Origin: an uncultured Holophagae bacterium
Lineage (GTDB): Bacteria; Acidobacteriota; Thermoanaerobaculia; Thermoanaerobaculales; Sulfomarinibacteraceae
Assembly (NCBI GenBank): GCA_963710645.1
Contig: CAVQBD010000002.1
Coordinates: forward strand, 138,828 to 202,827
Length of the DNA stretch: 64,000 bases
Direction of reading: 5' to 3'
This document shows positions 27,849 to 62,179 of the stretch, in pieces. A program made the position numbers and the translations under genes. Below the pieces are notes generated by a model. The model did not search any database. It was not told where the DNA came from and was given only the letters and a program-made list of their open reading frames with translations. Every line of letters starts with the position of its first letter. Positions within the stretch are counted from its first letter, which is position 1.

Positions 27849-28017
27849 GGATGGCCCGCGGCCAGCGGTTCATGGCTTGCGACCGGAGCAAACTGCGATC
27901 CCCGACGGTCGTCTTCCATTGCAACTTGCGACGGTGCCGCTCGTGGATTGCCGGGAAGTCAGCCCGAAATATTGATTTTAAGAGACTTGTGCATAATTTC
28001 ACGAAATCTAGGAAAAT

Positions 28018-28033
28018 GGCACGCCGGTTGCTG
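28018..28033 (+). promoter_or_regulatory. Sigma-54 (-24/-12) promoter candidate for the beta-propeller and hmc-like operon
   Basis: TGGCACGCCGGTTGCT matches the consensus at every conserved position (GG 28019-28020, GC 28031-28032). It lies about 60 nt upstream of ATG 28092, with an AT-rich tract just upstream. Confidence 0.7.
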
Positions 28034-31379: not shown

Positions 31380-31382
31380 GGG

Positions 31383-32903: not shown

Positions 32904-33937
32904 GCATCACACGCCGGTCCATGATCGGAGGCCTGGTTGGTGGGGCGGCCGCCATGGCGGCCGAGTCCGCCGATGCCGGCTCCCATAAGCATTTCGAGGG
33001 CTATCCGGGCCGCTACGGGCTCCTCCACGACACCACCCTGTGTGTGGGCTGCCGGTCCTGCGAGATGGCCTGTGGCGAGGTCAACGATCTGCCCGCCCCA
33101 GAGGCTCCCATTGGTGACCAGCGTGTCTTTGAGGACACGCGGCGGACCACTGCCACCCATCTGACGGTCGTCAACCGCTATGTTGAACGAAGCGGCAATC
33201 AGCCGGAGGTGTTCCGCAAGCTCCAGTGCATGCACTGCAACGAGCCGTGCTGCGCCACCGTGTGCCCGGTTGGAGCATTCACAAAAACCCCCGAGGGACC
33301 GGTGCTCTATGACGCCGAGGTCTGCATGGGTTGCCGCTACTGCATCATGGCCTGCCCCTACAACGCCTTGGCCTATGAGTATGACAATCCGCTGACGCCA
33401 AGGGTCATGCGCTGCACCATGTGCTATCAGCGGATCGTGGAGGGCCAGGTTCCGGGTTGTGCCGAAGCCTGTCCAACAGGCGCCATCACCTTCGGCCGGC
33501 GCGACGAACTCATTAAAGTGGCCAGAGAGAGGATCCGCAAGGAACCCGGCCGCTACATCGACCACATCTTCGGTGAGAACGAGTTCGGCGGCACGAGCTG
33601 GCTGCTGCTGGCCGGCGTGCCCTTCAGTCAGCTCGATCTGCACGAGGGTCTGACCTATGAGCCCCTGCCGGCCATCGCGACCAGCTATCTCAGCGTCGTG
33701 CCACTGGTGATCACGATCTACCCGGGCCTGCTCCTCGGTCTGCACGCCTTCAGCAAACGCCAGGAGGCGGTGGCCCGCAAAGAGCGGGATGAGGCGGTGG
33801 CCGAAGCCCTGAAAAAGGCCGACGACGACGCGAAACAGAAGCTCACCAAGGCCGCCGAGAAGGCGAAGAAGGACCAGCAACGGGCGGTTGACATGGCGGT
33901 TAAAAAGGCGCTCGAGGAGCACGGGGGTGGAGCATGA
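32900..33937 (+). CDS. hmcB: HmcB-like Tat-exported 4x[4Fe-4S] protein (DsrO/PsrB/NrfC family) with a C-terminal TM anchor
   Basis: ATG 32900, with an ATGA overlap to hmcA. Twin-arginine leader MSITRRSMIGGLVGG. Four Cys clusters (CVGCRSCEMAC, CMHCNEPCCATVCP, CMGCRYCIMACP, CTMCYQR...CAEACP) and a late hydrophobic helix. Confidence 0.8.
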   Translation: MSITRRSMIGGLVGGAAAMAAESADAGSHKHFEGYPGRYGLLHDTTLCVGCRSCEMACGEVNDLPAPEAPIGDQRVFEDTRRTTATHLTVVNRYVERSGNQPEVFRKLQCMHCNEPCCATVCPVGAFTKTPEGPVLYDAEVCMGCRYCIMACPYNALAYEYDNPLTPRVMRCTMCYQRIVEGQVPGCAEACPTGAITFGRRDELIKVARERIRKEPGRYIDHIFGENEFGGTSWLLLAGVPFSQLDLHEGLTYEPLPAIATSYLSVVPLVITIYPGLLLGLHAFSKRQEAVARKERDEAVAEALKKADDDAKQKLTKAAEKAKKDQQRAVDMAVKKALEEHGGGA

Positions 33938-35121
33938 GTCAGGCCGGTGTCGAGAGTCTGCAGCCGGCGCCGTCAAAGCCCGGTCTGCTGACTCCGTTCA
34001 ACGTGGTGTCGGGGATCATATTGATCGGTGGTGCGGCGATCCTGGCCCTCCGATTCATCAAGGGGTTGGAGGCGACGACCAACCTCACCGACACCTATCC
34101 GTGGGGGCTGTGGATCGGCTTCGATGTCATGAGTGGGGTCGCGCTGGCAGCCGGTGGCTTCGTCACTTCGACTGCCGTTTACCTCTTCGGCATGAAGGAG
34201 TACAAGCCCATCGTCCGGCCGGCGATCCTGACGGGATTCCTCGGTTATTTCCTGGTGGTCCTCGGGCTGCTTGCGGATCTCGGACGCCCCTGGCGCCTTC
34301 CCTATCCCTTTATCAAACAGGCGGGCCCGACCTCACCGTTATTCGAGGTGGCGCTCTGCGTGGCGTTGTACCTGACGGTGTTGTTCATCGAGACGACGCC
34401 GGCCGCGCTGGAGTGGCTCGGTCTGAAACGGTGGCGCAGGGTGGTGGGCAGCCTGACCATCGCGCTCACCGTTTTCGGCTTGATATTGTCCACCATGCAT
34501 CAGTCCACCCTCGGGGCCATGTACATGGCGGCGCCCACCAAGGTGCACCCGCTTTGGTACTCGGCCCACATGCCGGTGCACTTCTTCGTGTCGGCGGTGG
34601 CGGCGGGCATCGGCATGGTTATCGTGGAAGGGGCCATCTCCCACCGGGCCTTCCACCATCAAGTACAGATCACCCAGGATCAATTCAGGGATATCAACAT
34701 CGGACTGGCCAAGGCCGGTGCGGTGGCTCTGGCTGTCTATTTCGCCGTCAAGGTGGTCGGTCTCGCCATCGAGGACGAATGGGCGTTGTTGGGCACGGGC
34801 TGGGGTGCGTGGTTTCTTCTGGAGATCCTCGGTTTTGTTCTGCTGCCCTGCATCCTCTTTGCGGTTGCATACCGGGAAAGGAATGTGGTGCTGGCCCGAG
34901 TCGCGGGCGTCCTCACGGTTGTGGGCGTCGTCCTGAACAGATTCAATATCACGTTTGTCGTATTCAACTGGAATTACACGACCGAGCCCAGGTACTACCC
35001 GAACTGGATGGAGATCTGGGTGACCGTCGCGTTCATCACATTCGCGGTGGTGGTGTTCAAGTTGATCGCGAGCTACATGCCGATCATGTACGAACACCCC
35101 GACTGGAAAGGCGAGCACTGA
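33934..35121 (+). CDS. hmcC: HmcC-like NrfD/PsrC/DsrP-family integral membrane quinone-interacting subunit
   Basis: ATGA overlap with hmcB. 395 aa and polytopic, with the NrfD-type N-terminus ...TYPWGLWIGFDVMSGVALAAGGF. Confidence 0.8.
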   Translation: MSQAGVESLQPAPSKPGLLTPFNVVSGIILIGGAAILALRFIKGLEATTNLTDTYPWGLWIGFDVMSGVALAAGGFVTSTAVYLFGMKEYKPIVRPAILTGFLGYFLVVLGLLADLGRPWRLPYPFIKQAGPTSPLFEVALCVALYLTVLFIETTPAALEWLGLKRWRRVVGSLTIALTVFGLILSTMHQSTLGAMYMAAPTKVHPLWYSAHMPVHFFVSAVAAGIGMVIVEGAISHRAFHHQVQITQDQFRDINIGLAKAGAVALAVYFAVKVVGLAIEDEWALLGTGWGAWFLLEILGFVLLPCILFAVAYRERNVVLARVAGVLTVVGVVLNRFNITFVVFNWNYTTEPRYYPNWMEIWVTVAFITFAVVVFKLIASYMPIMYEHPDWKGEH

Positions 35122-36983: not shown

Positions 36984-38510
36984 TCAACGAGCAACGGGCA
37001 AAACCACGGCAAACGTGCTGCCCTCGCCGACCTTGGATTCGACCTTGATCTCACCGCCGTGTTTCTGAATGATGCCGAGCGACACGGAAAGACCGAGCCC
37101 GGTCCCGCTGCCGCTCGATTTGGTGGTAAAAAAGGGATCGAAAATCGCTTTGAGTACGCGAGGCGACATTCCGGGGCCGGTGTCCCCGATGTAGATTGCG
37201 ACACATCCGGTGTCCAGGCTCACGTCACTGCTCAGGGTGAGTGTGCCCCCACTCTCCATTGCGTCGATCGCGTTGAGGATCAGATTGAGAAACACCTGGC
37301 TCAGATACTGCCGATCACCGTTGATCTCCGGCAGATCATCGGAGATGTCATAAACCTGCCTGACCCCGGAGAGTTTGAGCTGGTTGGACGCGAGTCTGAG
37401 TGCGTTTCCGACCACCTCGTCGAGGCTCAACCGTTCGGTCTTGATCTCGCTCTCGCGAGCGAAGTCGAGGAGATTTCGGACGATCTTACGGGCCCGCTCC
37501 GCCTGTTCTGATACGTCTCTGATCAACTCCTGTTTCTCGCCGTCTGGCAGGCTTTCGAAATCCTCCTCGAGAACCGCTGCGGTCAGCATGATGTTGTTGA
37601 TTGGGTTGTTGACCTCGTGGGCGATACCGGCGGTCAGGGATCCGACGGCTCGAAGCTTCTGGGACTGGAGGAGGAATTCCTCCCGGCGCACGAGTTCGCG
37701 GGTCATCCTGTTGATCGCGATCGCGAGATCGGTGAACTCGTCACGGGATTTTCGAACCGGCACGATCGGGGAAAAATCACCGGCCCCGATACGGCGTGCG
37801 GCGGCCATCAGAAGATCGAGGCGCAGCATGATATGGCGCCACATGAAGGTCGCCGCATAGACCGACAACGTGACCACCAGGAGCAGATAGACCGCGGGAA
37901 AGACCTTTGAAACAGCCAATAGCCTGCGAACGCTGTCGCGCTCCCTGTCGGCGACCTTCTGACCGCAGGAGACCAGGCCCGATCCGCAGTCTCGGAGCTC
38001 CTGGTCAAGCGCCTGACGGGAGGTTGACATCGCGGGTTCGCCGGACTGTTCGAGGTCACGAAGCTCGCCGATGAGCTCGCGGTAGTGTCGCAAATTTTTT
38101 TCGAGGAACTCGATACATTCGCCGCTCACCGAGACAGTGAGATCCTGCATTGACTGTTCCACGGCTGCTGCTGCGGCGTCGATGTGGTAGTCGACGTGCT
38201 GAAGGTCGCTGCCATAGAGCAAAAAGTTCTTCTCGAATCGCCGAGTTTGGAGAATCTCGTAGTTCAGCTGATCGGCGACACCGATCAAGGTGATTTTTCG
38301 CTCGATCCGGGACACCAGGACCCACGTTACGGCGGTGATCGCCACGGATCCGATGGCGAACAGGGCGAACATTGTGGCGAGTCGCATGCGGATACTAACC
38401 TTTGGGCGAGAGAGGAGGGTTCTTTCGGCCTCAGTGGTCGTCACCACACTGTGTTCGACGAGGTCGAACCCTCCGACAAGCGTTTCAGGGTTCTGCCCCG
38501 TATCCGTCAT
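36984..38510 (-). CDS. Membrane sensor histidine kinase (HAMP, HisKA, HATPase)
   Basis: Two TM segments flank a roughly 150-aa sensor region. H-box AGIAHEVNNPINNI, N-box LNLILNAIDA, and G-boxes GDTGPGM and GSGTGLGLSVS. Confidence 0.85.
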   Translation of the reverse strand: MTDTGQNPETLVGGFDLVEHSVVTTTEAERTLLSRPKVSIRMRLATMFALFAIGSVAITAVTWVLVSRIERKITLIGVADQLNYEILQTRRFEKNFLLYGSDLQHVDYHIDAAAAAVEQSMQDLTVSVSGECIEFLEKNLRHYRELIGELRDLEQSGEPAMSTSRQALDQELRDCGSGLVSCGQKVADRERDSVRRLLAVSKVFPAVYLLLVVTLSVYAATFMWRHIMLRLDLLMAAARRIGAGDFSPIVPVRKSRDEFTDLAIAINRMTRELVRREEFLLQSQKLRAVGSLTAGIAHEVNNPINNIMLTAAVLEEDFESLPDGEKQELIRDVSEQAERARKIVRNLLDFARESEIKTERLSLDEVVGNALRLASNQLKLSGVRQVYDISDDLPEINGDRQYLSQVFLNLILNAIDAMESGGTLTLSSDVSLDTGCVAIYIGDTGPGMSPRVLKAIFDPFFTTKSSGSGTGLGLSVSLGIIQKHGGEIKVESKVGEGSTFAVVLPVAR

Positions 38511-38553: not shown

Positions 38554-38934
38554 TCAGCGTTTCATTTCTTTGATCGCTCGCAGGATGATTTCGCGCAAAT
38601 CATCAGGCTTGAATGGTTTCGCAATGAAGTCGAAGGCACCGCGTGTGAGAGCCTCGCGCGCGACCTCCACCGTGGCGTAGCCGGTGATGAGGATCACCTT
38701 TGTGTGAGGCGACTTTTCGAGCACGTGCTCGAGCACTTCCATGCCGCTGAAGCCCTCCATCCGCACATCGGTCACGACGATGTCGAATGCCTTTTCCACC
38801 ACGCGCGCAACAGCCAGACGACTTTCCTGGAAGATCTCCACGTCATAGTCGGACTTCTCAAGCGCGGTCTTCAACCGCTTGCCAACAATTTCCTCGTCAT
38901 CGAGCACCAGAATCTGGATCTTCGGTTCGCTCAT
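38554..38934 (-). CDS. Single-domain CheY-like response regulator
   Basis: IQILVLDDEEIV...DIVVTDVRMEGFSG...VILITGY...FIAKPFKPDDL. Confidence 0.9.
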   Translation of the reverse strand: MSEPKIQILVLDDEEIVGKRLKTALEKSDYDVEIFQESRLAVARVVEKAFDIVVTDVRMEGFSGMEVLEHVLEKSPHTKVILITGYATVEVAREALTRGAFDFIAKPFKPDDLREIILRAIKEMKR

Positions 38935-38967: not shown

Positions 38968-40062
38968 TCAGTTTTCGTTTGAAACAACCGCCGATTCCGC
39001 GAGCCGCCGCCGTATCGATGCCTGCCTGCGAAAAGCCTTGATGACGTTGAAAATAATCACCACAACGCCTGATACACCGGCAACAAAGAGCATACCCTTG
39101 CTGACGGCGTTCAATTGTCCGACCCAGACCTCATCAAAACTGACCAAGCCGAGTTGGCGGAGGTACACCGGTATGGCGACGCCGCGCGAGATGACGCAGA
39201 GCAGGATGACGATACTCGTCACCAACCGGATCACGACCTCTTTGACGACTTTAGTCCCGTAGGTACCGATGTAGATACCGATCAGAGACCCCAGGTACAG
39301 CAAGACCACCAAACGCACGTCGATGAACCCCTCGAGAACATAGTTCAGGGCTCCAAAGGCGCCCATGAACATGGCCAGAAAAAGTTCGGTCCCGGTGGCC
39401 ACGGCGGTCGGAACTCCAAAGACGTAGATCATCGCTGGAACGCCTATGAACCCTCCGACTCCGATAGTTCCGGCGAGGTACCCGGTGGCAAGCCCGACGA
39501 GGGCCAGCACCCACAGCGATACCTTCACGTCGGCCACCGGAAATTCAATCACCGGCGACAAACGCATACGTCCCAGTCTCTCGGCGATCTTCCGAGAAGG
39601 GCCCTCCTCCGCTCTGGATTTCACCACGTCCCGAAGCATGGAAATCGCAACCGCCGACAGAATACAGACAAAGACCAGACTGATGTACAGGTTGGCAGCC
39701 GCCCCCTTGCCGCCGCCGTGGGTGTCGGCGACCCCAAAGAGGGTGGCATTGATCCACACCGCGAGGCGGATTCCGACGAATGAGGTCGCGAGCAGGAAGA
39801 TGCCGAGTTTTTTGTCGACGTTGCCGAGTTCACCGTGTTTTCGAGATCCCATGAGGGCCTTGCCGAATTTGTGGGTGATATTGCTGCCGACGGCGATCAC
39901 GCCGGGAACACCCAGGTTCATCATTCCGGGGGTCATGAAGAATGCCCCACCGCTGCCGATGAAGCCACTGAGCACTCCGCCGATGAAACCGAGCAGAACC
40001 ACCTGGAGCGAGGTGCCGAGATCGAGAACGATGAAATCCTTGAATATCAGTTCTGGCATCAA
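38968..40062 (-). CDS. TauE/SafE-family (TSUP) anion exporter-like membrane protein
   Basis: 364 aa and polytopic. GG-rich helix motifs occur in both halves (GGVLSGFIGSGGAFFMTPGM... and ...GYLAGTIGVGGFIGVPAMIY). Confidence 0.7.
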   Translation of the reverse strand: MMPELIFKDFIVLDLGTSLQVVLLGFIGGVLSGFIGSGGAFFMTPGMMNLGVPGVIAVGSNITHKFGKALMGSRKHGELGNVDKKLGIFLLATSFVGIRLAVWINATLFGVADTHGGGKGAAANLYISLVFVCILSAVAISMLRDVVKSRAEEGPSRKIAERLGRMRLSPVIEFPVADVKVSLWVLALVGLATGYLAGTIGVGGFIGVPAMIYVFGVPTAVATGTELFLAMFMGAFGALNYVLEGFIDVRLVVLLYLGSLIGIYIGTYGTKVVKEVVIRLVTSIVILLCVISRGVAIPVYLRQLGLVSFDEVWVGQLNAVSKGMLFVAGVSGVVVIIFNVIKAFRRQASIRRRLAESAVVSNEN

Positions 40063-40134: not shown

Positions 40135-41664
40135 TCACTCCACATGGAACAACTTCAGGACGGTTCCGGCGAGCGTACCGTATATCACGGCGAAGACCGG
40201 CACAAAGACCAACAGAACCGCGGCGGCCACCACTTTTGCCCCGGCTGTCGCGGGTGAAAAAAACGCCAACATTTCGTACTGATGATCGAAGACCAGGAGG
40301 ACAACAGCGACCACGATGGCCGCCAGCGCAATCATCTTCGCGTAGTCGGACCAGCCGGTGTGAACCATCTGACCAAGATCCTCGGCGTTGACCACTGGCG
40401 CCTTGATGACATCTCCGAGCCGTCCTACCAGCTCTCTTGTCTTTCGGAGTCTCGTGGCGTGGCCGTGGTCCAGATATACGTCACCGACGACCACCAGACT
40501 GCAGGGAATCGATCGGTCAATGACCGCACCGATTCTCCCAACGTCAACCGGGAGTCGGCTTGCGCTGCCGGCGATTCCGCGAGCGTTCAATTCACCGATC
40601 ATCTCGCGCAGGTCGGCATCCTTCCCGGGTTGTCCAGGTGCGAGCTCCACATCCTCTTCGATCCCGCCGTCCACCTGGCGGACGTTGAACAACGGGAGAG
40701 GGTCGGCGTTCGCCGCACCGGCGTCAGTACTGTCTGTCACCGCCGAAAGCGAGGTGGCCGGGGTGAGAGTCACGAGCTCCACGGCCGAGTGCCAATGGGT
40801 CGCGGTCTTGACGACTGCCTCGAAGGTGGAACCCGTTGCCTGAAAACGCTCTTGCACCCACAGGATGTTGGTGGCCGCCATGGCGCAGGTCAGGTCTTTC
40901 ACACCCGGAATCGAACCGACGACCTCGGGCGCCCTGACGCCGACGGCCGCATCCTGCGGAAGAAAGGAGACCGCCACGAAGCCGGCCTCCGCCCTCACCG
41001 AGAATCTCGCCGCCCAGGTGCGTTCATCCCTGGCCAGGGCGATCCTTATCCGGGCGGCAAGCAACAGGTTCTCGAGCACCTTGATGGATGCAGGGAATGC
41101 CTGGAACTCTGGAAGTTGTGCATAATCGCATAGGGCCGTAGTGGCGCCTCCGACATCGACGCGATCGAGGTTGACGACCAGGTCATGCCCGGTCCACGGG
41201 TCCCCGCTCACGTTGTACATTGTCCGAATCCAACGTGCGATGTCCTCGTTCACGCTCTCCACATACTGCTTGGCTTTTGCGCGATCGAGGGACAATCGGC
41301 CCATGACCTCGGCGATGTGGGTGTCGGTGTCGATGGCCGTGCGGATGCGCAAGACGTGTGTCAAGCCCGGCGCCGCCAGATGAGCGGCTCGCCCGTGAAA
41401 CACCAGATCGTCCTCGATGGCGCGTTCGCACAGCACCCGCGTCATGAAGGCCAGAAAATGCTCTTTTTCCAGAATCTGCCGTTCACTCAACTGACGTCTC
41501 TTGACTGCTGCCGTTTCAAGTTTGCCGACGGCAATTCCGTCTCGGATAGCCAACTCGACAATGTCCTCCTGGCTGAGGCACCGGAAATCGAGTTTCTGGG
41601 CGAGGGTTTGAGCAAAGAGCTTGCCCTTCTCCTGCTCTCCCCGCGAGACACATACTATGCGCAC
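40135..41664 (-). CDS. Cytidylate-kinase-like (PF13189-type) / BON-like / membrane-anchored protein
   Basis: GTG start with a GGGGAGG RBS. The N-terminus MRIVCVSRGEQEKGKLFAQTLAQKLDF... has a degenerate P-loop, and the LTHVLRIRT...DIARWIRTMY...DLVVNLD pattern follows. A BON-like segment ends in GSIPGVKDL. Two TM helices lie at the C-terminus. Confidence 0.6.
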   Translation of the reverse strand: MRIVCVSRGEQEKGKLFAQTLAQKLDFRCLSQEDIVELAIRDGIAVGKLETAAVKRRQLSERQILEKEHFLAFMTRVLCERAIEDDLVFHGRAAHLAAPGLTHVLRIRTAIDTDTHIAEVMGRLSLDRAKAKQYVESVNEDIARWIRTMYNVSGDPWTGHDLVVNLDRVDVGGATTALCDYAQLPEFQAFPASIKVLENLLLAARIRIALARDERTWAARFSVRAEAGFVAVSFLPQDAAVGVRAPEVVGSIPGVKDLTCAMAATNILWVQERFQATGSTFEAVVKTATHWHSAVELVTLTPATSLSAVTDSTDAGAANADPLPLFNVRQVDGGIEEDVELAPGQPGKDADLREMIGELNARGIAGSASRLPVDVGRIGAVIDRSIPCSLVVVGDVYLDHGHATRLRKTRELVGRLGDVIKAPVVNAEDLGQMVHTGWSDYAKMIALAAIVVAVVLLVFDHQYEMLAFFSPATAGAKVVAAAVLLVFVPVFAVIYGTLAGTVLKLFHVE

Positions 41665-41808
41665 TCTCGAACCTCCCCGAGCGACTCCTTCACATCGAAA
41701 ATCAACAGCCCCTGCATGGCGACCCCATCGCTTTCTGTTCAGCCCAGCGGCTCGATTGTACTCCCGGTCGTGGGATTTCCCGCAACAGACAAATGGTTAG
41801 GCTGTGGC

Positions 41809-44800
41809 CTACCTATTCACCACCTCGATCAACGGACACGGACGTTCGTCGGTGCCCTCGTGGGCTTGTCCGTGAATTGCCTCGATCGCACGGGCGCGGG
41901 TCGGAAAGACCGACTCCCGGCCAATGGTCGCGAGACAGCCGGTCCGTTCGAGAATGTCGAAAATGTCATCCTTGAGACCGCTGATTGAAACCTGGTAACC
42001 GGCGCTTCGAAGATCCAGTACCAGGTCACCAAGGTCCTCCGCCGCGATCTCATCCACGGTCGAAAGACCGTGACACGCGAGCAGGATGTGGCGCGTCTCG
42101 GGGCGCGCGGCGACACGCGCCTTGATCTCGTGCGCGACGAAATCCACGGTCGCAAAATTGAGAGGCCCGTCGATCCGCATGGCTGCGATAAATCGGCAGA
42201 CGGCGAGACCATAGTGGTCGGCGTTGCGGAGCGATCCGTCCGCATGCATCGAAATCTCCACGACCCGAGGCAGGAGCGGCTGCATCGGGCAGTGCTCCTC
42301 AGAGTGTCCACGATGGGCCTCGGCGTACATGCTGGCCACTGCAGAGTCCGCGGTCGGGAAGATATTGTCCAACCCGATTTCGTCGGCAACACCCGACCGT
42401 CCGAGCTCCTCGAAAACGTGATCTCTGAAGCTGCAGAACGACACCGAAAAAGCCGCCTTTCTCAGGCGTTCCACCAACTCGCGAAGCCTTTGTGCGTCTT
42501 CCGAGCCGTGTCGTTCAAGGGTGTGAGCGACAAACAAAATGTGAGTCACCTCAAGCCGATTCTTGACCCACTTGGTGAGCTCCAACTCCAGAGCCGCCGG
42601 GTTGGCGAGAATCAACGGTCCATCGAAGCGAAGGGCCGCGATGTGAGAACACAGTCCAAGGCCGTGCCGTCGAGCTTCGCGCAAACTCCCGTCAGGATGC
42701 AAGGAAAGTTCGGTGACACGGGGCGCCATGGGCTGGAACGGGCAGTTCGGCTCGCTCGATTCGGCGTGCGCCTGCGAGCACAGGGCGGCGATCGCTGCGA
42801 ATTGGGTGGGGAAGCGGTGATTTGAGCCGATGACCTGGTCAGTGTCAATCCGGTCGAGGACCTCCAGGACTTCATCCCGGAAGCCCGAGAACGACACGCC
42901 CAAACCCTGCTCGCGGAGACGGTTGACGACCTGAACGAGCTTCTGCGCCCCGGACGGATCGACCTCCGCAATACCGTGGGCGACGAATATGACCTGTCGC
43001 AGCTCCGATCTCCCCTCCAATTTCAGGAGGATCTCCTGCTCGAGGAAATCCGTGTTGGCATAGGTGAGCGGATCGTCGAAGCGGAGGACTGCCATGTGCC
43101 GGCACAACTGGAGGTCATGGCGTACAGCATCGCGAAGCGAACCGTCGGGATGGACCGAGAGTTCCGCGAGTCGGGGCATCACCGATCGATAGGGGCAACC
43201 CGGCTCGGGATCAGTGTGGGCCGAGGCGTAGATCGCAGCGATGGCCTGGGCCTGAGTGGGGAACTGGTGGTCCCCGCCGAGGACATCGTAGAGGTGGGAC
43301 CGTTTGAGCACGTCGACGACCTGGTCCTTGAGGCCGCAGAAAGAGACGTCGTACTTCGCCTCCCGCAAGTGCTCCACCAGGTGGCGCAACATTTCCTCAC
43401 CCGAGGCGTCGACCTCGTTGATGCCCTCGGCCACGACCAGGACGTGCTTGAGATCCGGCATCTTGGAGACCCGATCGAGCACCTCGTCCTCGAGGTAGGA
43501 GGCGTTGGCGAAGTTCAGCGGGCCGTCGAACCGTATTGCGGCCAGGTACCGGCATTGCTCGAGGCCATGCCTCCTGGCGTCCTTCAAACCGCCCTCCGAA
43601 TGGGGGGCCAATACGGCCACGCTGGGACGCATCGTACGGAAGAGGTACCCGCCAAGCGACAGGGTCACCCCGATCAGGATCCCCCACTCGAGGTGCGGCG
43701 CAAGAATGAGAGTGCACACGAAGGTCACGACCGACACGAAACCGTCGAATGGTTGGGTCCGCCAAGCATGGACAAAACCACTCACGTTGAGCAGGCCGAA
43801 TACGGCCATCATGATGATCGACGCCAGCACCGCCTGTGGCAGGTTGTAGAGCATGGGTGAGAAAAAGAGCAGGACGATCGCGACGATCAACCCGGAGAAG
43901 ACGTTGGACATGCCGGTGCGCGCTCCCGCCTGCAGGTTGACGGCCGAGCGCGAGAACGATCCCGAGACGGCATAGCTCTGACCCATGCAGCCAACGATGT
44001 TTGCCAACCCCTGACCGATCAGCTCCTGGTTCGGGTCGAGCTTCTGCTTTGTCTTGGCGGCCATCGCTTTGGCGATCGAGATCGCTTCCATGAATCCGAG
44101 GATGGAGATGATGATCGCTGCGGCGATGAGCTTGGGTATGACCTGGAAGTCGATGACGGGCGGACTGATTGGCGGGAGGCCGGCGGGGATTGTCCCGACC
44201 ACAGCCCCTCCTCCTGTCATCATCAAATTCTCTTGATCGATGGCGACGTTGCCCACCTTGATCCGCCATGTGCCAGGTTCCACCTCGAGATCCTGGGCCG
44301 ACTCACCCCGCACGATGAATTGGGGCTCACCCTTTGCATCGACGGCGCGCTGGAAGCGGTAGCCTCTCAGCTCGGTTCGAACATCCGACACGTGGTGTTT
44401 GAGTTCCTCGATCCGAATGTCGATCAAGCCTGCCATTTGGTGAAGGGCCAGCGTCCTGCGCTCGAAATCGCCCGCCACAGCCGGACCACCGCCTGACCCA
44501 AACCCCGTCGCCGAGCGCAGCGCGTGGCAACCCATGCACTGAGTGACGAGATCGCTGTTCTGGTCGTCGAGGAGGACGTTCCCGGAGGCCCTCGCTTCCT
44601 CCAAGAGTCGCTCCTCGAGCACGGCGTCGTTGAACTCAGTGATCTGCTCTTTCACTTTTTCGGATTCGATCTGGTTGCCCTGGACGTTCTCGTTCCTTTC
44701 AAATCCGAGCGTTGCGGCAAGCGCGGTGGTTACGACAACTGCCACCAGCACATTCGGGATCCGGGGGTTGAGTCGCCTCAACGTGATCATGATTGCGAAC

Positions 44801-45414
44801 GACAAGATTGCCATCGCGAGCGTTGGAAGGTGGGTGTAGTGGAGGGCGGCCTCGAAGACCCGGTAGATGGTCCCGTAGTGATGTTCCGCCTTGTCTACAT
44901 AGACGCCGAAGATTTTCGACAATTGGGACGTTGCGATGATCAGGGCGGCGGCATTGGTGAAGCCGTTGACCACCGGATGGGAGAGGAAATTGACAATCAG
45001 GCCGAGGCGAAGGATGCCAAGGGCGAGCTGGAAAACGCCCACCATCAACGCCAGCAAAATGGCGTAGGCGATGTACTGCTGGCCGCCTGCAGTGGCGAGT
45101 GGCTCGAGTGCGGCGGCGGTCATCAGCGACACCACCGCAACAGGTCCCGTCGCCAACTGCCGGCTCGAGCCGAAGAGGTTGGCTACGATGGGCGGCAGAA
45201 AGGCCGCATAGAGCCCGTAGTAGGCCGGCAGCCCGGCCAGCTGCGCATACGCCATCGACTGGGGAACGAGAACGAGGGCTACCGTGAGCCCTGCGATGAA
45301 GTCACTTCTGAGAGTCGAGGCGTCATAGCCCTGGAACCATGTGAGAAATGGGAAAAGGCGTCGCAGGATGGTCATATCCCAGATACTCCAAGCTTTCGGA
45401 GTATACGACAGCAC
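41809..45414 (-). CDS. SulP/SLC26-family anion transporter with an inserted soluble loop and four tandem C-terminal STAS domains
   Basis: SulP signature region (LRSDFIAGLTVALVLVPQSMAYAQLAGLP...). There is a roughly 165-aa non-membrane insertion (residues about 239-404) before the VVGTIPAGLPP motif. Four roughly 150-aa STAS-like repeats occupy residues about 600-1201. Confidence 0.85.
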   Translation of the reverse strand: MLSYTPKAWSIWDMTILRRLFPFLTWFQGYDASTLRSDFIAGLTVALVLVPQSMAYAQLAGLPAYYGLYAAFLPPIVANLFGSSRQLATGPVAVVSLMTAAALEPLATAGGQQYIAYAILLALMVGVFQLALGILRLGLIVNFLSHPVVNGFTNAAALIIATSQLSKIFGVYVDKAEHHYGTIYRVFEAALHYTHLPTLAMAILSFAIMITLRRLNPRIPNVLVAVVVTTALAATLGFERNENVQGNQIESEKVKEQITEFNDAVLEERLLEEARASGNVLLDDQNSDLVTQCMGCHALRSATGFGSGGGPAVAGDFERRTLALHQMAGLIDIRIEELKHHVSDVRTELRGYRFQRAVDAKGEPQFIVRGESAQDLEVEPGTWRIKVGNVAIDQENLMMTGGGAVVGTIPAGLPPISPPVIDFQVIPKLIAAAIIISILGFMEAISIAKAMAAKTKQKLDPNQELIGQGLANIVGCMGQSYAVSGSFSRSAVNLQAGARTGMSNVFSGLIVAIVLLFFSPMLYNLPQAVLASIIMMAVFGLLNVSGFVHAWRTQPFDGFVSVVTFVCTLILAPHLEWGILIGVTLSLGGYLFRTMRPSVAVLAPHSEGGLKDARRHGLEQCRYLAAIRFDGPLNFANASYLEDEVLDRVSKMPDLKHVLVVAEGINEVDASGEEMLRHLVEHLREAKYDVSFCGLKDQVVDVLKRSHLYDVLGGDHQFPTQAQAIAAIYASAHTDPEPGCPYRSVMPRLAELSVHPDGSLRDAVRHDLQLCRHMAVLRFDDPLTYANTDFLEQEILLKLEGRSELRQVIFVAHGIAEVDPSGAQKLVQVVNRLREQGLGVSFSGFRDEVLEVLDRIDTDQVIGSNHRFPTQFAAIAALCSQAHAESSEPNCPFQPMAPRVTELSLHPDGSLREARRHGLGLCSHIAALRFDGPLILANPAALELELTKWVKNRLEVTHILFVAHTLERHGSEDAQRLRELVERLRKAAFSVSFCSFRDHVFEELGRSGVADEIGLDNIFPTADSAVASMYAEAHRGHSEEHCPMQPLLPRVVEISMHADGSLRNADHYGLAVCRFIAAMRIDGPLNFATVDFVAHEIKARVAARPETRHILLACHGLSTVDEIAAEDLGDLVLDLRSAGYQVSISGLKDDIFDILERTGCLATIGRESVFPTRARAIEAIHGQAHEGTDERPCPLIEVVNR

Positions 45415-45541
45415 TTCCTTTATGCGATGTCGGATGGAGAATCAGACAAGATCATGCGACAGTTTGACAGCCGAGATGGCGACTGACAGAATTCTGGTGC
45501 CTGCGATGTGATGTCGGGGCTTGAGCCGAGGGGGTCGAAAC

Positions 45542-46767
45542 GTGGCGATCATTACGATCGACAGTGCGACGTTCTGCCACGGGCCGGAGGTGGCATCTTC
45601 AGTGGCCGACCGTCTGAAACTGGACCGCCTCGAGGACGACGCGGTCTTTGCGGCCGCCGCCGCCGTCGCCGGTATGGATGCAGCCAAGCTGGTCCGTATC
45701 GTCTACGGTCCGGCGCCCATTTTCCCGGTCGGGGTGCGTGACACGGCGAAGGCAGTCGCCGCCCTCCGCGTCGCCTTGATCGAGGTCATCAGCGCGGATC
45801 AGCTGGTGTACCACGGTCTCCTCGGTCGGCTGCTTCCCCAAAAGCTGTCTCATGTGCTGCGAGTGTGCTTGGCAGGCGACACCGATTTTCGAATCGGGGA
45901 GGCGGACAGGCAGGGAGTTCCGCCCGGGAGGCGAAACGCCGCATCAAGGCCGACGACGACGCGCGGGCGGACTGGATCGACCTCGTGGTTGGTATGGGCC
46001 CATGGGACACGAGCATGTACGACATTTTCGTGGCCATGGACAAGACGTCTCTCGAAGGTGCGGTCGAGTTGGTCTGTGATCACGCGACTCGGCCGCTTCT
46101 GGATCTGACTCGAGCGGGCGAACGCGCCCTGGCCGAAGCTCGCCTTTCAGCGGAGGTCAATCTCGAACTCGCCCGCGAGGGCCACGACGTCGACGTGGTG
46201 TGCGACGATTCTCGGGCCACCATTTTGATCAAGAAGGAAAGCGTATTCAGGGACCGGCAGCGGAAGGAGTTCGAGAAAATTGCCCTCGGTGTCGAGGGGG
46301 TGTCTGCCGTCGAGGTCCGGCGTGGACCGCGCTTCAAGGAGCCGGACATATCATTCAAGATCGACCTCGACGTGCCGTCAAAGGTGCTGTTGGTCGATGA
46401 CGAGCAGGAGTTCGTCAACACCCTGTCCGAGCGGCTCGAGACCCGGAGCATGACGCCGGCAATCGCCTACGACGGCGAAGAGGCTCTGGCGATGGTCGCC
46501 GACGATCAGCCGGAGGTGATGGTGCTCGACCTCAAAATGCCGGGCATCGACGGCCTCGAGGTGCTGCGCAGAATGAAGAAGAGCCACCCCGAAACCCAGG
46601 TCATCATCCTCACAGGGCATGGTTCGGCGGCGGAGGAGGAATTGGCCGCCGAACTTGGCGCCTTTGCATACCTGCGCAAGCCGGTGGACATCGAGGAACT
46701 CACGGCGACAATGAGAAAAGCGTATCGTGAGATCGAGGCGCGACGCGAAGGACGCGACGACGACTGA
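45542..46767 (+). pseudogene. Cytidylate-kinase-like / BON-like / receiver-domain protein split by a frame change near 45900 (pseudogene, assembly indel or recoding)
   Basis: ORF 45521..46108 carries the N-terminal half of the kinase-like domain (...LSHVLRVCLAGDTDFRI). The continuation (SAREAKRRIKADDDARADWI...YDIFVAMD..., a BON-like segment, then a full receiver VLLVDDEQ...MVLDLKMPGIDG...ILTGHG...LRKPVD) is in the -1 frame (ORF 45865..46767). Colinearity with the paralog at 40135..41664 spans the junction. Confidence 0.7.
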
Positions 46768-46771
46768 GAAA

Positions 46772-48505
<1,734 letters not shown>

Positions 48506-48510
48506 ATTGA

Positions 48511-48894
48511 ATGAGTCGTCTTCGAGTCTTGTTCGTCGACGATGAAGAGGAGTTCGTATCGGCGGTCGTCGAACGACTCCAACTTCGAGGGATCGAAGCC
48601 ACAGGTGCGATAACTGGTGCAGAGGCTCTCGATCTGATCGACCGGGAAACCTACGACGTCGTCGCGGCCGATGTGAAGATGCCGGGGCTCGGAGGGCTCG
48701 AGATCGTCCGGCGCATCAAGGATCGACATCCCGGGCTGCAGGTGATTCTGCTGAGCGGTCACGGCTCGCGAGATGATGCCGAGGAGGGGCGTCGGCTCGG
48801 TGCCTGCGATTACTTGGAAAAACCCATCGACATCGAGATTCTGATAGAAATCTTGCGCAAGGCTGCCGCGTCGGCAGGGCCGGTGGTCCGGTGA
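48511..48894 (+). CDS. Single-domain CheY-like response regulator
   Basis: RVLFVDDEEEF...DVVAADVKMPGLGG...VILLSGHG...YLEKPIDIEIL. Confidence 0.9.
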   Translation: MSRLRVLFVDDEEEFVSAVVERLQLRGIEATGAITGAEALDLIDRETYDVVAADVKMPGLGGLEIVRRIKDRHPGLQVILLSGHGSRDDAEEGRRLGACDYLEKPIDIEILIEILRKAAASAGPVVR

Positions 48895-49613
48895 CCGACT
48901 CCGATTCCTCTCGAAAACGGGATGAGGGCCTTGCTTTCTTCGGCACGATGATCGCCGGACAATCCCACGAGCTCACCAACGTCCTCAATATCATCAAGGA
49001 GTTGGCCGGCCTGCAACACGATCTTCTGGAGGCAGGAAACACCGGGCGCCCCGTCGATCTTTCGAGGATTCAGGAGGTCGCATGCAGGATCCAAAACCAG
49101 GTCATGCGGGGCGACACGATCATTCGCAACCTCAACCATTTTGCTCACAGCGTCGACCTGCCGACGGCGGTATTCGATCTCAGGGAGGCGATTGAAAGGG
49201 TTGTGTTCTTCGCCGAGCGGTCGGCCCGGCTGGCCCGGGTCGAGTTGAGTCCGGACCTGCCGGAGGAATCGATGGCCCTCGAGAACAACCCGTTCAGCCT
49301 CCAGCAGGCGTTGTTCATTTGCATCGATCTTGCTCTGCAGTCCGCCACTGACGAACGAAAGGTGACCGTGGATTACAGCGTCTGCGAAGACGGGGCGAAG
49401 ATCCGGATCAACTCGGCCGACAGGCTGGCCAACGATGGTCTCGTCGCCGAGAAACTGGGGTTCCTCAGGCTGTTGCTGTCGGACCTTGGCGGGGTCCTCC
49501 TCAGGGGTCCTGGAGAGGAGCCGTACAACGCGATCGTTTTCAAAATCGGGCTGCACCGGGGCGAGCCATCCGGGCGGCTCGGATCGGCCCGAAGCTCAGG
49601 GGAAGAGAATTGA
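48891..49613 (+). CDS. Soluble histidine-kinase-like protein with a DHp/H-box but a degenerate ATPase domain
   Basis: GTGA overlap with the upstream gene. The H-box-like IAGQSHELTNVLNIIKELAG aligns with AGVAHEINNPLAII of the neighbouring kinase. The downstream region has no recognisable N, G1 or G2 boxes. Confidence 0.55.
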   Translation: MTDSDSSRKRDEGLAFFGTMIAGQSHELTNVLNIIKELAGLQHDLLEAGNTGRPVDLSRIQEVACRIQNQVMRGDTIIRNLNHFAHSVDLPTAVFDLREAIERVVFFAERSARLARVELSPDLPEESMALENNPFSLQQALFICIDLALQSATDERKVTVDYSVCEDGAKIRINSADRLANDGLVAEKLGFLRLLLSDLGGVLLRGPGEEPYNAIVFKIGLHRGEPSGRLGSARSSGEEN

Positions 49614-49668
49614 TACAGTGCGGACACCGGAACCGGCGGCCGGTGACGGCGGGTCGGAATGGAGGCGG

Positions 49669-50103
49669 ATGATGCGCGTCGAGAGCGTGTTGTTGGTTGA
49701 TGACGAAGTGGAGTTTGTTCAGACACTTGCAGAACGCATGCAGGCACGGGGACTGGCCGTCGAGTACGTCACCAACGGCCACGATGCCATCGAATCGGCG
49801 AGATCCAAGACCTACGATGCGGTGGTCCTCGATTTGGCCATGCCTGGAATGAACGGTCTCGAGACCCTCAAGATCCTCCTCCGAGATCATCCCGGCCTCC
49901 AGATCATGCTTCTCACCGGGCAGGCCACCGTTGGCGATGCCGTCGAGGCAACAAAGATCGGGGCGGTGGACGTCTTCGAAAAACCCACCGACATCGAGAC
50001 CCTGGTGGAGAAGATCCGCGAAGCCAGGAAAGCGCGACTCGCCCTGGAGGAGCAACACGCCCTCGATGAGATCGACAAGATCATGTCCACCAAGGGTTGG
50101 TGA
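49669..50103 (+). CDS. CheY-like response regulator with a short C-terminal helical tail
   Basis: ATG 49669 or 49672 follows GGAGG. VLLVDDEVEF...AVVLDLAMPGMNG...LLTGQA...VFEKPTDIETL. Confidence 0.85.
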   Translation: MMRVESVLLVDDEVEFVQTLAERMQARGLAVEYVTNGHDAIESARSKTYDAVVLDLAMPGMNGLETLKILLRDHPGLQIMLLTGQATVGDAVEATKIGAVDVFEKPTDIETLVEKIREARKARLALEEQHALDEIDKIMSTKGW

Positions 50104-50218: not shown

Positions 50219-52282
50219 TCAGCCTGCCCTCTCGAACCGTTCGAGGTGTTGTTCACTCCCCAACACCAGCATCACATCGCCCTCCTGAAAGACGTAGCCC
50301 GCACTGGGCATTTCGTCGATAAAAGTTTCCCCGTCGCTGCTCTTTCGCTTGATGAGCAGAAGGTTGACACCAAATTTCTGTCGAATGTCGAGCGAACCCA
50401 GACTCTGACCGAAGAAACTGGCGGGGACCGGGACCTCGGCAAGGCTCATGCCCCGAACTCCTGGGAGCGCTCGGGCTGACGGACCATTCCCCATTGTTCC
50501 GGCCATGGTCGAGGCCATATCGCGCTTGAGAATCTCGCCATTGTATGCCTCGATCACATCCTGCGGCCACAGGGTGCCCACGAGCCGTCCGCGATCCACC
50601 ACCGGCGCCATGAACCGATACCGTCCGAACCGCCTCATGACCTCGTCGAGCGGATCGTCGGGACCGAATACAGGGAAGCCGGTTTCCCTCATCATATCCT
50701 CGGCGATGACCAGACCTCGTGCCGATGCCGGATCGGTCATGAGGGGTCTGATGTCATCGATGGTAATCAGACCCAGGAGGTGGTGATTGGCGTCGGTCAC
50801 GAACACCGTATCGCCGGGGCGTTCGACAAAACGAGAAATCACGGGCATCAAATGGTCTTCTCGTCGGACCACGGTGACCTCGGTTCGCATCGCCTCGCGT
50901 GCGTTGAGCTGGCCAAGCACGTTGGCCGAGTATCCGCCCCGAATGTCGACCCCGCGTCGAAGCAGCTTGAGTGTATAGATCGACGCTGTCTGCATCCGTG
51001 TCGCGAGCAGAGTGGCGATGATGCAGCTGATCATCAGGGGAAGAATGATCTTGTAGTCGCCCGTGAGCTCGAAGATCATCACGATGGCGGTGATGGGAGC
51101 GTGGGTTCCCGCCGCGACAACGGCACCCATCCCCACCAGTGCGTAGGCGCCGGGGCTGGCCGACGCGTCGGGCCATAGGGAATGCACGATAGTCCCGACC
51201 GCCCCGCCGGCCATCGCGCCGATGAACAATGAGGGAGCGAAGATGCCGCCGGATCCGCCTGAACCGATGGTCAGGGAGACCGCCACGATCTTTACCAAGA
51301 CCAGGATCAGCAGCAGCTTCCACCCCAGTCCACCACTCAGTGCCTCGTTGATGGCTTCGTAGCCGACTCCAAGAACCTCCGGGAATTGGATCGCGATCAA
51401 TCCGATGAGCGCCCCGCCCATCGCTGGTTTGACGACAGCTGGAAGACTGAGAGCATCGAAGAGGTCTTCTGCGCCGTACAACGCACGAACAAAAACCAGG
51501 GCCACCAACCCGGCGATGATGCCCAACGCACCGTAGGCGAAGAGTTCGAGTGGGCTTGCGAGGCTGTAGGCCGGCACCTCAAATGCCGGGAAATTACCAA
51601 GGAAGTGTCGACTCACCACTGTTGCCGTGACAGATGAAATCACGATGGGAGAAAACTGGGTGACTCCAAAATCGCCGAGGATGATCTCCACTGAGAACAG
51701 GGCCCCGGCCACCGGCGCATTGAATGTGGCCGCGATCCCGGCCGCCGCGCCGCAGCCGACCAGGGTCCGCAGTCGCCGTTCTCCCACGCCCAACCACTGA
51801 CCGAGGGATGATCCGATCGCAGAGCCGATCTGGACGATCGGTCCTTCCCGACCCACTGACCCTCCAGATGCGATACACACGCCCGAGGCGAGGAGCTTGG
51901 CGACAACCACACGCGGACGGATCCGACCGCCCCGAAGGGCCACCGCCTCCATGACTTCCGGCACACCATGCCCCTTGGCTTCGGCAGCATAACGGACGAT
52001 GATCAGCCCGACGATCAGACCACCCACCGCCGGCGACAGCACTTTCCACCAACTCGGCAGACTTCTGAGGTATGCAAGAGTTACGTTGTCCGTTTGCCAG
52101 GCGACGGCCTGGAAGAGGCGTATGGACTCCCGGAACCCAACCGCACCAAGTCCACCGAGCAGCCCGATGACAACGGCCACGAGCACCATGTACGAGTGTT
52201 CGGTGTACTTCAGGAACAGGTGGGCACGCTCCGCCGCCTGGCGAACAAGATTGACAACCGGGATTCGGCTCAGCCAGCCCAT
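50219..52282 (-). CDS. ClC-family chloride channel/antiporter with a CBS pair and a C-terminal TrkA-C (RCK_C) domain
   Basis: GSVGREGPIVQIGS, GSGGSGGIFAPSLFIGA and the CBS region. The terminal segment VPASFFGQSLGSLDIRQKFGVNLLLIKR...GDVMLVLG is TrkA-C-like. Confidence 0.85.
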   Translation of the reverse strand: MGWLSRIPVVNLVRQAAERAHLFLKYTEHSYMVLVAVVIGLLGGLGAVGFRESIRLFQAVAWQTDNVTLAYLRSLPSWWKVLSPAVGGLIVGLIIVRYAAEAKGHGVPEVMEAVALRGGRIRPRVVVAKLLASGVCIASGGSVGREGPIVQIGSAIGSSLGQWLGVGERRLRTLVGCGAAAGIAATFNAPVAGALFSVEIILGDFGVTQFSPIVISSVTATVVSRHFLGNFPAFEVPAYSLASPLELFAYGALGIIAGLVALVFVRALYGAEDLFDALSLPAVVKPAMGGALIGLIAIQFPEVLGVGYEAINEALSGGLGWKLLLILVLVKIVAVSLTIGSGGSGGIFAPSLFIGAMAGGAVGTIVHSLWPDASASPGAYALVGMGAVVAAGTHAPITAIVMIFELTGDYKIILPLMISCIIATLLATRMQTASIYTLKLLRRGVDIRGGYSANVLGQLNAREAMRTEVTVVRREDHLMPVISRFVERPGDTVFVTDANHHLLGLITIDDIRPLMTDPASARGLVIAEDMMRETGFPVFGPDDPLDEVMRRFGRYRFMAPVVDRGRLVGTLWPQDVIEAYNGEILKRDMASTMAGTMGNGPSARALPGVRGMSLAEVPVPASFFGQSLGSLDIRQKFGVNLLLIKRKSSDGETFIDEMPSAGYVFQEGDVMLVLGSEQHLERFERAG

Positions 52283-60296: not shown

Positions 60297-60390
60297 TGAA
60301 ACCCGGGTTGACCGCCGGGCAACTGTGGGTGGCGCGAGGCAATCCTCAGTTGTTGCAATGGCTTGCGTCACCGGACGCCGGCTGTCTCTC

Positions 60391-60406
60391 TGGCACAGCG
60401 GTTGCA
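60391..60406 (+). promoter_or_regulatory. Sigma-54 (-24/-12) promoter candidate for yeiH-like and dsrAB
   Basis: TGGCACAGCGGTTGCA (GG 60392-60393, GC 60404-60405). It lies about 47 nt upstream of ATG 60453. Confidence 0.7.
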
Positions 60407-60452
60407 CTGCTCCAATGGGCTGAGGTGTGTTTCGAAACCATCGGAGCGTGAG

Positions 60453-62105: not shown

Positions 62106-62179
62106 GGAGTTTGTGTCGGGTGGGCCATCGTTGGTCTCCCCGCCGAGAAAATTTCTGAAATCAATGGAAAGGAGTGGCC

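Follow-up and report, generated by a model that had tools for sequence, protein, structure and literature searches.

The 64,000-nucleotide stretch of an uncultured Holophagae bacterium analysed here (contig CAVQBD010000002.1 of assembly GCA_963710645.1; hereafter the window) encodes two proteins with a cytidylate-kinase-like PF13189 domain and a BON-like domain, in the vicinity of transporters of the TauE/TSUP and SulP families. The region between positions 36984 and 50103 was shown to comprise two separate conserved modules, each built around one PF13189-BON paralog and each furnished with its own two-component system.

Module A runs from 41664 to 36984 on the reverse strand as a four-gene operon. 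Its first gene, CK_TM (40135..41664), is an intact open reading frame (ORF) coding for a 509 amino acid protein, in which the PF13189 and BON-like domains are followed by a region with a USP-like fold and a transmembrane (TM) hairpin. It is located 72 nucleotides upstream of the gene for a 364 amino acid TauE/TSUP transporter (38968..40062; PF01925 over residues 22-291; Bitscore: 128.8; cut-off: 32.6), and read-through from CK_TM into TauE in frame would meet three stop codons. Hydropathy analysis places an extra hydrophobic segment of TauE at residues 323-341, outside the Pfam domain. No NCBIfam equivalog was matched by this protein. The operon continues with a single-domain receiver, REC1 (38554..38934; PF00072; Bitscore: 98.1), and a HAMP-HisKA-HATPase sensor histidine kinase identified by its Pfam domains, HK1 (36984..38510), in which hydropathy predicts two TM segments on either side of an extracytoplasmic sensor region of ~140 amino acids.

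Module B combines a four-STAS SulP transporter with an adjoining five-gene operon on the forward strand (45542-50103). The SulP gene (41809..45414, reverse strand), which ends 144 nucleotides upstream of CK_TM, encodes a 1201 amino acid protein (TIGR00815; Bitscore: 544; cut-off: 380) in which PF00916 is matched in two stretches (Bitscore: 359) and the STAS domain, PF01740, in four. The membrane domain is interrupted by an insertion of ~150 amino acids, its Pfam stretches covering residues 35-255 and resuming from ~402. The operon is headed by CK-REC (45542..46767), in which PF13189 and BON-like domains are joined to a receiver and the reading frame is interrupted by a one-nucleotide deletion. 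It is followed directly, as also in related loci, by the dCache-HisKA-HATPase sensor kinase HK2 (46727..48505; Pfam), and then by the single-domain receiver REC2 (48511..48894; PF00072; Bitscore: 90), whose operon position is conserved, a 240 amino acid kinase-core-like protein (48891..49613) and the receiver REC3 (49672..50103; PF00072; Bitscore: 94), which has a 143 amino acid counterpart at the same position in loci L083-L085.

A first-pass annotation of the window had placed CK_TM upstream of TauE, recognized the SulP protein as a multi-STAS form and described the second paralog as ending in a CheY-type receiver at the head of a kinase and receiver operon, all of which is borne out. It had overlooked the receiver and HAMP kinase downstream of TauE, and had portrayed the family as wired between two anion transporters and a phosphorelay. 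The transporter linkages in that portrayal stand, while the single arrangement resolves into two modules, with SulP not being conserved beside CK_TM.

Conservation of the two modules in other genomes

A scan with CK_TM of one genome per GTDB species returned 214 relatives, the best 80 loci of which were used for all neighbourhood counts of module A. Nearly all of these loci derive from metagenome-assembled genomes (MAGs), almost all of uncultured sediment and soil lineages, and they span more than ten phyla: Acidobacteriota (Holophagae, Thermoanaerobaculia, Sulfomarinibacteraceae), Gemmatimonadota, Desulfobacterota, Myxococcota, Planctomycetota, Latescibacterota, Fibrobacterota, Ignavibacteria, Zixibacteria, Elusimicrobiota and others are represented. 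In 80/80 loci, the gene immediately downstream of CK_TM, in the same orientation, encodes TauE; the two are separated by 7-136 nucleotides (median: 35). TauE shows 55-94% amino acid identity across these loci, above that of CK_TM itself. Sixty-six of the 80 loci contain enough sequence downstream to judge the remainder of the operon and were considered informative. ORF clustering identified a receiver next after TauE in 51, a HAMP kinase in 48 and both in 46 of these 66, and HK1-type kinase matches cover the sensor region in 66 loci. A reverse look-up from TauE found a PF13189 protein of ~505 amino acids directly upstream in 4/5 places (four independent TauE-subfamily proteins). The only exception seen to the CK_TM-TauE pairing is L114 (GCA_029216075.1, JARDUI010001565.1, 5579-7167), where the TauE protein, which is identical to its L115 counterpart, has unrelated ABC-transporter genes upstream; the contig may have been rearranged or may be a chimera of the assembly.

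Several further genes recur around module A. Short PF13189-BON paralogs of ~260-275 amino acids, which pass both Pfam gathering thresholds (PF13189: 28 bits; PF04972, BON: 27 bits), lie beside the cassette in 33 of the 80 loci, the BON scores of these short forms and of a CBS-fused form described below reaching 30-38 bits. The neighbourhood of 27/80 loci includes genes for NtrC-type activators (receiver, sigma-54 AAA+ and HTH_8 domains), and such genes lie right upstream in L113, L115 and L116, while a small separate USP gene immediately precedes the cassette in 18/80. Dikinase genes of the PPDK_N/PEP-utilizer type were found in 16 clustered loci as well as in L113-L115 and L117. In the Desulfobacterota-type operons, one or two such genes, which are absent from the window, flank a single-domain receiver; dikinase-like genes are situated at 7177-10932 in L113, 7238-12737 in L115, 1890-4367 in L117 and 14428-16968 in L025.

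Relatives of CK-REC sharing 53-60% amino acid identity are encoded each time in the same operon, comprising CK-REC, a dCache kinase, a receiver, a protein of ~235 amino acids and a 143 amino acid receiver. The module B loci were assembled from these look-ups and 26 metagenome loci, and 19 of the combined set are long enough to judge. A multi-STAS SulP gene adjoins the operon in 16 of these 19, either divergent and upstream, as in the window, or convergent and downstream, as in relatives sharing 40-50% identity. SulP was found within 10 kb of CK_TM in only 9 of the 80 module A loci, and is therefore a partner of module B and not of module A. In the remaining three loci (L085, L086 and L101) a DASS (Na_sulph_symp) transporter takes the place of SulP; a 463 amino acid PF13189-BON-CBS protein is encoded upstream of it in L085 and L086, while the L101 sequence ends within the DASS gene, short of the place where such a protein would be encoded. 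This protein extends the pattern to a third architecture beside a third transporter family. The linkage to transporters on which the first-pass annotation had staked its proposal accordingly recurs in other genomes, for TauE in both directions of search and for SulP in the informative module B loci.

The fourth product of the operon (48891..49613), a homolog of which is present in every copy, contains an H-box-like SHELTN motif and is similar to histidine kinases in their DHp/CA region. It matched no Pfam family and gave weak NCBIfam matches to kinase cores (e.g. AtoS, 388-547; e-value: 1.5e-8). Judged by this resemblance, it may serve as a phosphotransfer or phosphatase component.

Close Acidobacteriota relatives (L003, L004, L006, L089, L090, L098 and L099) are the only ones in which the complete super-locus was observed; there, TauE, CK_TM and SulP share a strand, the CK-REC operon occupies the opposite one and a ClC-CBS-TrkA_C gene converges on it. 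The ClC channel gene of the window (50219..52282, reverse strand), which encodes CBS and TrkA_C domains according to Pfam, converges on module B and is the third anion-transport gene of the super-locus. Homologs sharing 79-84% identity occupy the same position in L006, L089, L090, L095, L098, L099 and L111, this position likewise being conserved only in close Acidobacteriota relatives.

Domain architecture and kinase status of the paralogs

The CK_TM and CK-REC proteins are real paralogs. They share 32% amino acid identity over 131 residues (BLASTP; e-value: 4e-14), and hhalign comparison of the two family profiles aligns 255 columns (residues 1-260 with 1-259; probability: 99.8%; e-value: 2e-29), in agreement with the colinearity of the N-terminal ~260 amino acids reported in the first-pass annotation. 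The profile alignment takes in the BON-like segment, which ends in GV..V/L in both, and the secondary-structure elements occur in the same order in AlphaFold2 models of CK_TM and of a CK-REC ortholog.

The NMP (nucleoside monophosphate)-kinase-like domain of CK_TM covers amino acids 1-182 (41119..41664) and matches PF13189 (Cytidylate_kin2) at residues 3-167 over profile positions 1-175 of 176 (Bitscore: 61.5). The AlphaFold2 model, built from an 80-sequence alignment (pLDDT: 80.3; pTM: 0.71), has as its top Foldseek matches the crystal structures 3hdt (e-value: 6e-7) and 3fdi (e-value: 2e-6), with TM(target) values of 0.69-0.78, and the family profile matches the same two entries (e-values: 3e-13 and 4e-8, respectively). 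Both structures, a 'putative kinase' of Clostridium symbiosum (3hdt) and a protein of Eubacterium ventriosum (3fdi), belong to the same Pfam family and fold as the window proteins. They are, however, single-domain proteins of ~200 amino acids without assigned function, whereas the window proteins add a BON-like domain and either a USP-like/hairpin region or a receiver, and are encoded in conserved transporter and two-component operons.

The P-loop of CK_TM is reduced to the remnant GEQEKGKL, while its homologs read GSLIRGRE, GTFSGGQE or GGSNRTKA at this position, so that the Walker A lysine (GxxxxGK[ST]) is not conserved; the CK-REC family carries D-S-x-x-FCHG instead. Neither CK_TM nor CK-REC is thus a CMP (cytidine monophosphate) kinase. 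The P-loops of 3hdt and 3fdi read GSGG, not GK[ST], and degeneration of this motif, already noted for both proteins in the first-pass annotation, appears from these alignments to be a trait of the PF13189 family. Database entries for these proteins are labelled 'cytidylate kinase', 'AAA family ATPase' or 'response regulator'.

The absence or lack of conservation of the Walker A lysine in both paralog families, together with the FCHG at the P-loop position of the receiver-fused family and the score of CK_TM against the CMP-kinase model TIGR02173, which lies far under the cut-off (Bitscore: 17.8; e-value: 0.0026; cut-off: 102.1), weighs against an enzymatic role, in which the PF13189 domains, as active phosphotransferases, would modify the transported compound or a related metabolite (metabolic trapping), or else the STAS domains. 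Such a role would agree with the NMP-kinase fold, with the conserved GR, R and D residues left in the cleft region and with the PPDK_N/PEP-utilizer genes located inside the same operon in Desulfobacterota relatives. The searched literature, however, reports no activity for any PF13189 member, and we consider this explanation very unlikely.

The BON-like domain of CK_TM (amino acids 191-262; 40879..41094) is modelled by AlphaFold2 as helix-strand-strand-helix-strand. The CK_TM family profile matches OsmY (8rjx; e-value: 3e-4; residues 195-259), and Foldseek matches this part of the model to DolP (7a2d) with a probability of 1.0 and a weak e-value. No Pfam BON match was found in CK_TM, and across the family a single member of the 80 gave one (e-value: 0.07). 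The corresponding segment of CK-REC, at amino acids 191-266 of the repaired protein (46111..46338), was delimited by hhalign to the CK_TM BON region and falls under the Pfam BON threshold (Bitscore: 13.7; e-value: 0.08). The BON assignment of the first-pass annotation thus has support from profiles and fold only, and lies below the Pfam threshold in both window proteins. OsmY and DolP have the helix-strand-strand-helix-strand fold in common with these segments, but they are exported envelope proteins, whereas the BON-like domains of the window proteins are cytoplasmic (no signal peptide), occur in single copy and are situated between the kinase-like domain and the receiver or USP-like domain.

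The next part of CK_TM (amino acids 263-434; 40363..40878) was delimited from the AlphaFold2 elements as a Rossmann-type domain. Foldseek relates it, with weak e-values, to the universal stress protein structures 4wy2, 4wny and 5ahw, while PF00582 (Usp) is not matched by the C-terminal part of CK_TM even at e-values up to 10, and 2/80 family members match it (e-value: ~0.07). USP domains of the ATP-binding class are characterized by the motif G-2x-G-9x-G(S/T). This spacing is not visible in the CK_TM family consensus, where the region reads VVVGDVxxxxGHAxRxRxTRE. A disordered loop of low pLDDT at residues 304-347 includes a near-invariant GGIE(D/E)(D/E) motif (nucleotides 40651-40668). The modelled structure suggests at most a resemblance of fold, and the USP-like region proposed in the first-pass annotation is tentatively supported at that level and not at the level of Pfam.

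The C-terminal hairpin (amino acids 438-505; 40150..40353) bears out the two TM helices predicted previously. Hydropathy analysis identifies exactly two membrane segments, at 441-459 and 478-496, and the AlphaFold2 helices extend over 438-460 and 474-505. The hairpin terminates in a conserved ...YG...LKL..E, and F459, Q462, P489, A492, Y495, G496 and E509 are invariant in its alignment. Other conserved motifs of CK_TM are QLPxFQxTPA, NILWVQE and PYSLVVVGD, and the family as a whole is kept along its full length (~500-520 amino acids; 35-85% identity). Among 1.84e9 proteins, the USP-like/hairpin module is represented by only 144 cluster representatives, all of which are CK_TM-type proteins or fragments, no other architecture of this module being found.

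Receiver fusion and interrupted reading frame of CK-REC

The 45542-46767 interval, which had been taken for a single protein, is 1226 nucleotides long, a number not divisible by 3, and spans two ORFs in different frames (45521-46108 and 45865-46767), between which the peptides quoted in the first-pass annotation are divided. The PF13189 match is split between them, with profile positions 1-129 in the first (Bitscore: 33.9) and 131-175 in the second (Bitscore: 18.3). DNA alignment to three orthologous genes (L003, L004 and L006) reveals that one base is missing at ~45919/45920 (GGAGTT-CCGCC), dividing the gene into a frame-2 part (45542-45919) and a frame-1 part (45920-46767). When the frames are joined, a 408 amino acid protein results, with PF13189 over profile positions 1-175 of 176 (Bitscore: 60.2) and a receiver (Bitscore: 95). 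More than 100 intact relatives of 405-420 amino acids in the databases share the PF13189-BON-receiver architecture of the repaired protein. The first-pass observation is hence partly confirmed: both N-terminal regions belong to PF13189, and the second protein is interrupted in the window; its interpretation is supported.

The receiver of CK-REC (46384..46713; PF00072; Bitscore: 96) retains the DD pair, the phospho-acceptor D, the T and the K (VDDE, VLDLKMPG, ILTGHG and LRKP). In the AlphaFold2 model of an intact ortholog (P0121; pLDDT: 88.5), the order of elements seen in CK_TM is followed to residue 266, after which come a linker and a canonical receiver, for which Foldseek matches reach TM values of 0.85-0.95. 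The receiver is almost invariant across the family over dozens of columns (e.g. LVDDE, VLDLKMPGIDG and IILTGHG), and its conservation far exceeds that of the PF13189-BON part.

As judged from the sequence, the frameshift stems from an error in the assembly or else from recent inactivation of the gene. Over ~20 kb compared with close relatives (36969-57717), it is the only consistent frameshift. Two Logan contigs of 2.2-2.6 kb with an identical CK_TM protein end before CK-REC, and no intact, 100% identical copy of CK-REC was found in the protein collection. CK_TM, TauE, SulP or kinase genes are split in the long-contig MAG loci L035, L071 and L084 of related projects, which shows how common spurious frameshifts are in assemblies of this type.

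The interruption bears on the possibility that neither the paralogs nor SulP are coupled here, the super-locus being lineage-specific synteny, CK-REC a pseudogene and only the CK_TM-TauE pair meaningful. The frameshift stands in the deposited assembly, which annotates only the 300 amino acid C-terminal ORF (P0148), and this accords with such an absence of coupling, as do the confinement of the full super-locus to close Acidobacteriota relatives and the scarcity of SulP near CK_TM. A lone one-nucleotide indel in otherwise conserved sequence, however, fits an assembly error equally well as decay, and the CK-REC operon adjoins a multi-STAS SulP gene in distant relatives (40-50% identity) in another arrangement. 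Paralog pairs also recur, as in the loci where short PF13189-BON proteins accompany the cassette. On balance, an absence of coupling is unlikely.

Two sets of cysteines are found in module B. Each of the four STAS repeats of SulP is followed by a similar Cys-Pro linker (EPGCPY, EPNCPF, EEHCPM and ERPCPL), while Cys12 (FCHG) and Cys109 (VCLAG) are invariant in the CK-REC family. On the basis of these residues, a thiol-based link between the SulP linkers and the CK-REC cysteines is conceivable.

Two-component signalling and anion transport

The receivers of both modules carry no DNA-binding output domain by Pfam, so that their output must be exerted through protein-protein contacts. Since module B joins the receiver and PF13189-BON in one protein, and module A encodes them as separate genes of one operon, an interaction between the two is indicated by the Rosetta-stone argument. 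We infer from this, at a confidence that is evenly balanced, that PF13189-BON constitutes a non-catalytic, cytoplasmic regulatory or output module that links two-component signalling directly to anion transporters. In module A, the TM hairpin would tether PF13189-BON to TauE as an accessory subunit, docking on the transporter being the simplest reading of its conserved polar residues, and the phosphorylated single-domain receiver would provide the input to CK_TM. The conserved, co-oriented pairing with TauE across lineages is consistent with a transporter accessory or regulatory subunit. In module B, the soluble receiver-fused protein would act on SulP, the likeliest sites of action being the four STAS domains of the transporter or, via BON, the membrane. 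Phospholipid binding by the BON domain of DolP (PMC7806268) suggests that the soluble paralog acts close to the membrane. A phosphorylated ligand may still be bound by the GR, R and D residues conserved in the kinase-like fold, which would provide a metabolic input. By default, the transporter families point to a sulfur oxyanion or another small anion as the transported substrate.

A number of observations weigh against this proposal. Twenty of the 66 informative module A loci have no receiver and/or kinase right after TauE, modules A and B are not generally coupled, given the rarity of SulP near CK_TM, and the CK-REC gene is broken in the window. The BON and USP assignments lie under the Pfam thresholds in the window proteins. 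The dikinase genes often present in the Desulfobacterota operons hint at phosphotransfer chemistry that the proposed mechanism leaves unexplained. Finally, the signal may run the other way, with the transporter complex acting as a co-sensor for the kinase.

In such a co-sensor arrangement, comparable to PstSCAB-PhoU-PhoR, BceAB-BceS or DctA-DcuS, the HAMP kinase would be informed of transport activity or substrate load by TauE and its PF13189-BON-USP partner, and the receivers would carry the signal elsewhere, for instance to the NtrC-type activators whose genes lie upstream in many of the loci. The transporter, accessory protein, receiver and kinase do form a conserved operon, NtrC-type activators occur at the frequencies given above, and the membrane hairpin could touch the TM helices of the kinase as readily as TauE. 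HK1, however, possesses its own extracytoplasmic region of ~140 amino acids and a HAMP domain, and HK2 a dCache domain, so that both could sense ligands themselves, while the receiver fusion in module B puts PF13189-BON downstream of phosphorylation. We regard a co-sensor role as rather unlikely. Returning to regulation of the transporters by PF13189-BON, a wider version, possible if clearly more tentative, would see it as an unrecognised signalling output or adaptor module, attached to receivers and gating TSUP/TauE, SulP and DASS transporters post-translationally, with CK_TM-TauE as an obligate two-subunit transporter in more than ten mostly uncultured phyla.

Cytoplasmic regulators encoded with their transporters are known from several systems. 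USP domains accompany transporters and kinases, as in TeaD with the TeaABC TRAP transporter and in the USP domain of KdpD. The USP-like region of CK_TM is comparable in being a Rossmann-like cytoplasmic domain encoded with a transporter, which such domains are thought to modulate, but it lacks a significant Pfam Usp match and contains its own disordered GGIE(D/E)(D/E) loop. GlnK-AmtB, SbtB-SbtA and PhoU-PstSCAB are further examples, in which a small cytoplasmic regulator is encoded beside its transporter. They share with CK_TM-TauE the conserved pairing of a transporter with a gene for a ligand-binding fold, PhoU being also linked to a two-component system. The CK_TM fold is, however, NMP-kinase-like with BON rather than PII or PhoU, the protein is membrane-anchored, and the pair is known here from sequence. 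STAS domains in SulP/SLC26 proteins and CBS pairs in ClC channels represent cytoplasmic nucleotide- or ligand-sensing modules on anion transporters, and both types are present in the window locus; PF13189-BON differs from them in being a separate polypeptide tied to phosphorelay components. CK-REC resembles CheY-like proteins, PleD and RssB in that a canonical receiver is joined to a non-DNA-binding domain, while its receiver is C-terminal and the searched literature describes no output role for PF13189-BON.

Two crystal structures are available for the sizeable PF13189 family, to which no function has been assigned, and the TSUP/TauE transporters are abundant and poorly understood. No function for PF13189 and no description of these operons was found in the searched literature. 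The invariant CK_TM-TauE gene pair, the conserved four-gene operon and the receiver fusion provide a handle on the function of both families. If the proposed mechanism is correct, anion transport would be under two-component control directly, through a pseudo-kinase/BON module, and not via transcription.

A sigma-70-like promoter match (TTGACA-17-CAGAAT with TG; 45464..45492, forward strand; 10/12 in a consensus scan, a consensus match only) is located ~50 nucleotides upstream of CK-REC. No sigma-54 promoter was found upstream of CK_TM in the 144-nucleotide spacer to SulP, and sigma-54 matches across the window are no more numerous than in shuffled sequence.

Further genes of the window concern sulfur metabolism. 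A dsrA gene (62174-63391, forward strand; TIGR02064; Bitscore: 576; cut-off: 393) is preceded by a gene for a YeiH-family putative sulfate-export protein (60363-62105, forward strand). An Hmc/Tmc-like respiratory complex is encoded at 30060-35121 on the forward strand, with a TmcB/HmcF-like protein (Bitscore: 706), a 16-heme HmcA-like cytochrome (Bitscore: 468, above the cut-off), a 4Fe-4S protein and an HmcC/NrfD-like protein. Together, dsrA and the Hmc/Tmc-like genes indicate a sulfur-metabolising (sulfur-respiring), Holophagae-like host. The substrates of the TSUP subfamilies are largely unknown, and TSUP/TauE proteins are candidate sulfur-oxyanion carriers in sulfate reducers (PMC5840216). 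Given dsrA and the Hmc-like complex of the window, the system may bear on sulfur cycling. A conserved linkage of the cassette with dsr or hmc genes was considered and rejected, as only scattered weak matches occur within 10 kb in the other loci. A perfect match to the sigma-54 -24/-12 consensus (TGGCACAGCGGTTGC; 60391-60405) falls within the 5′-terminal part of the automatically called YeiH ORF, which suggests, as far as the sequence goes, that YeiH starts later and that the YeiH-dsrA operon has a putative sigma-54 promoter. A second perfect match (TGGCACGCCGGTTGC) is found at 28017-28031 on the forward strand.

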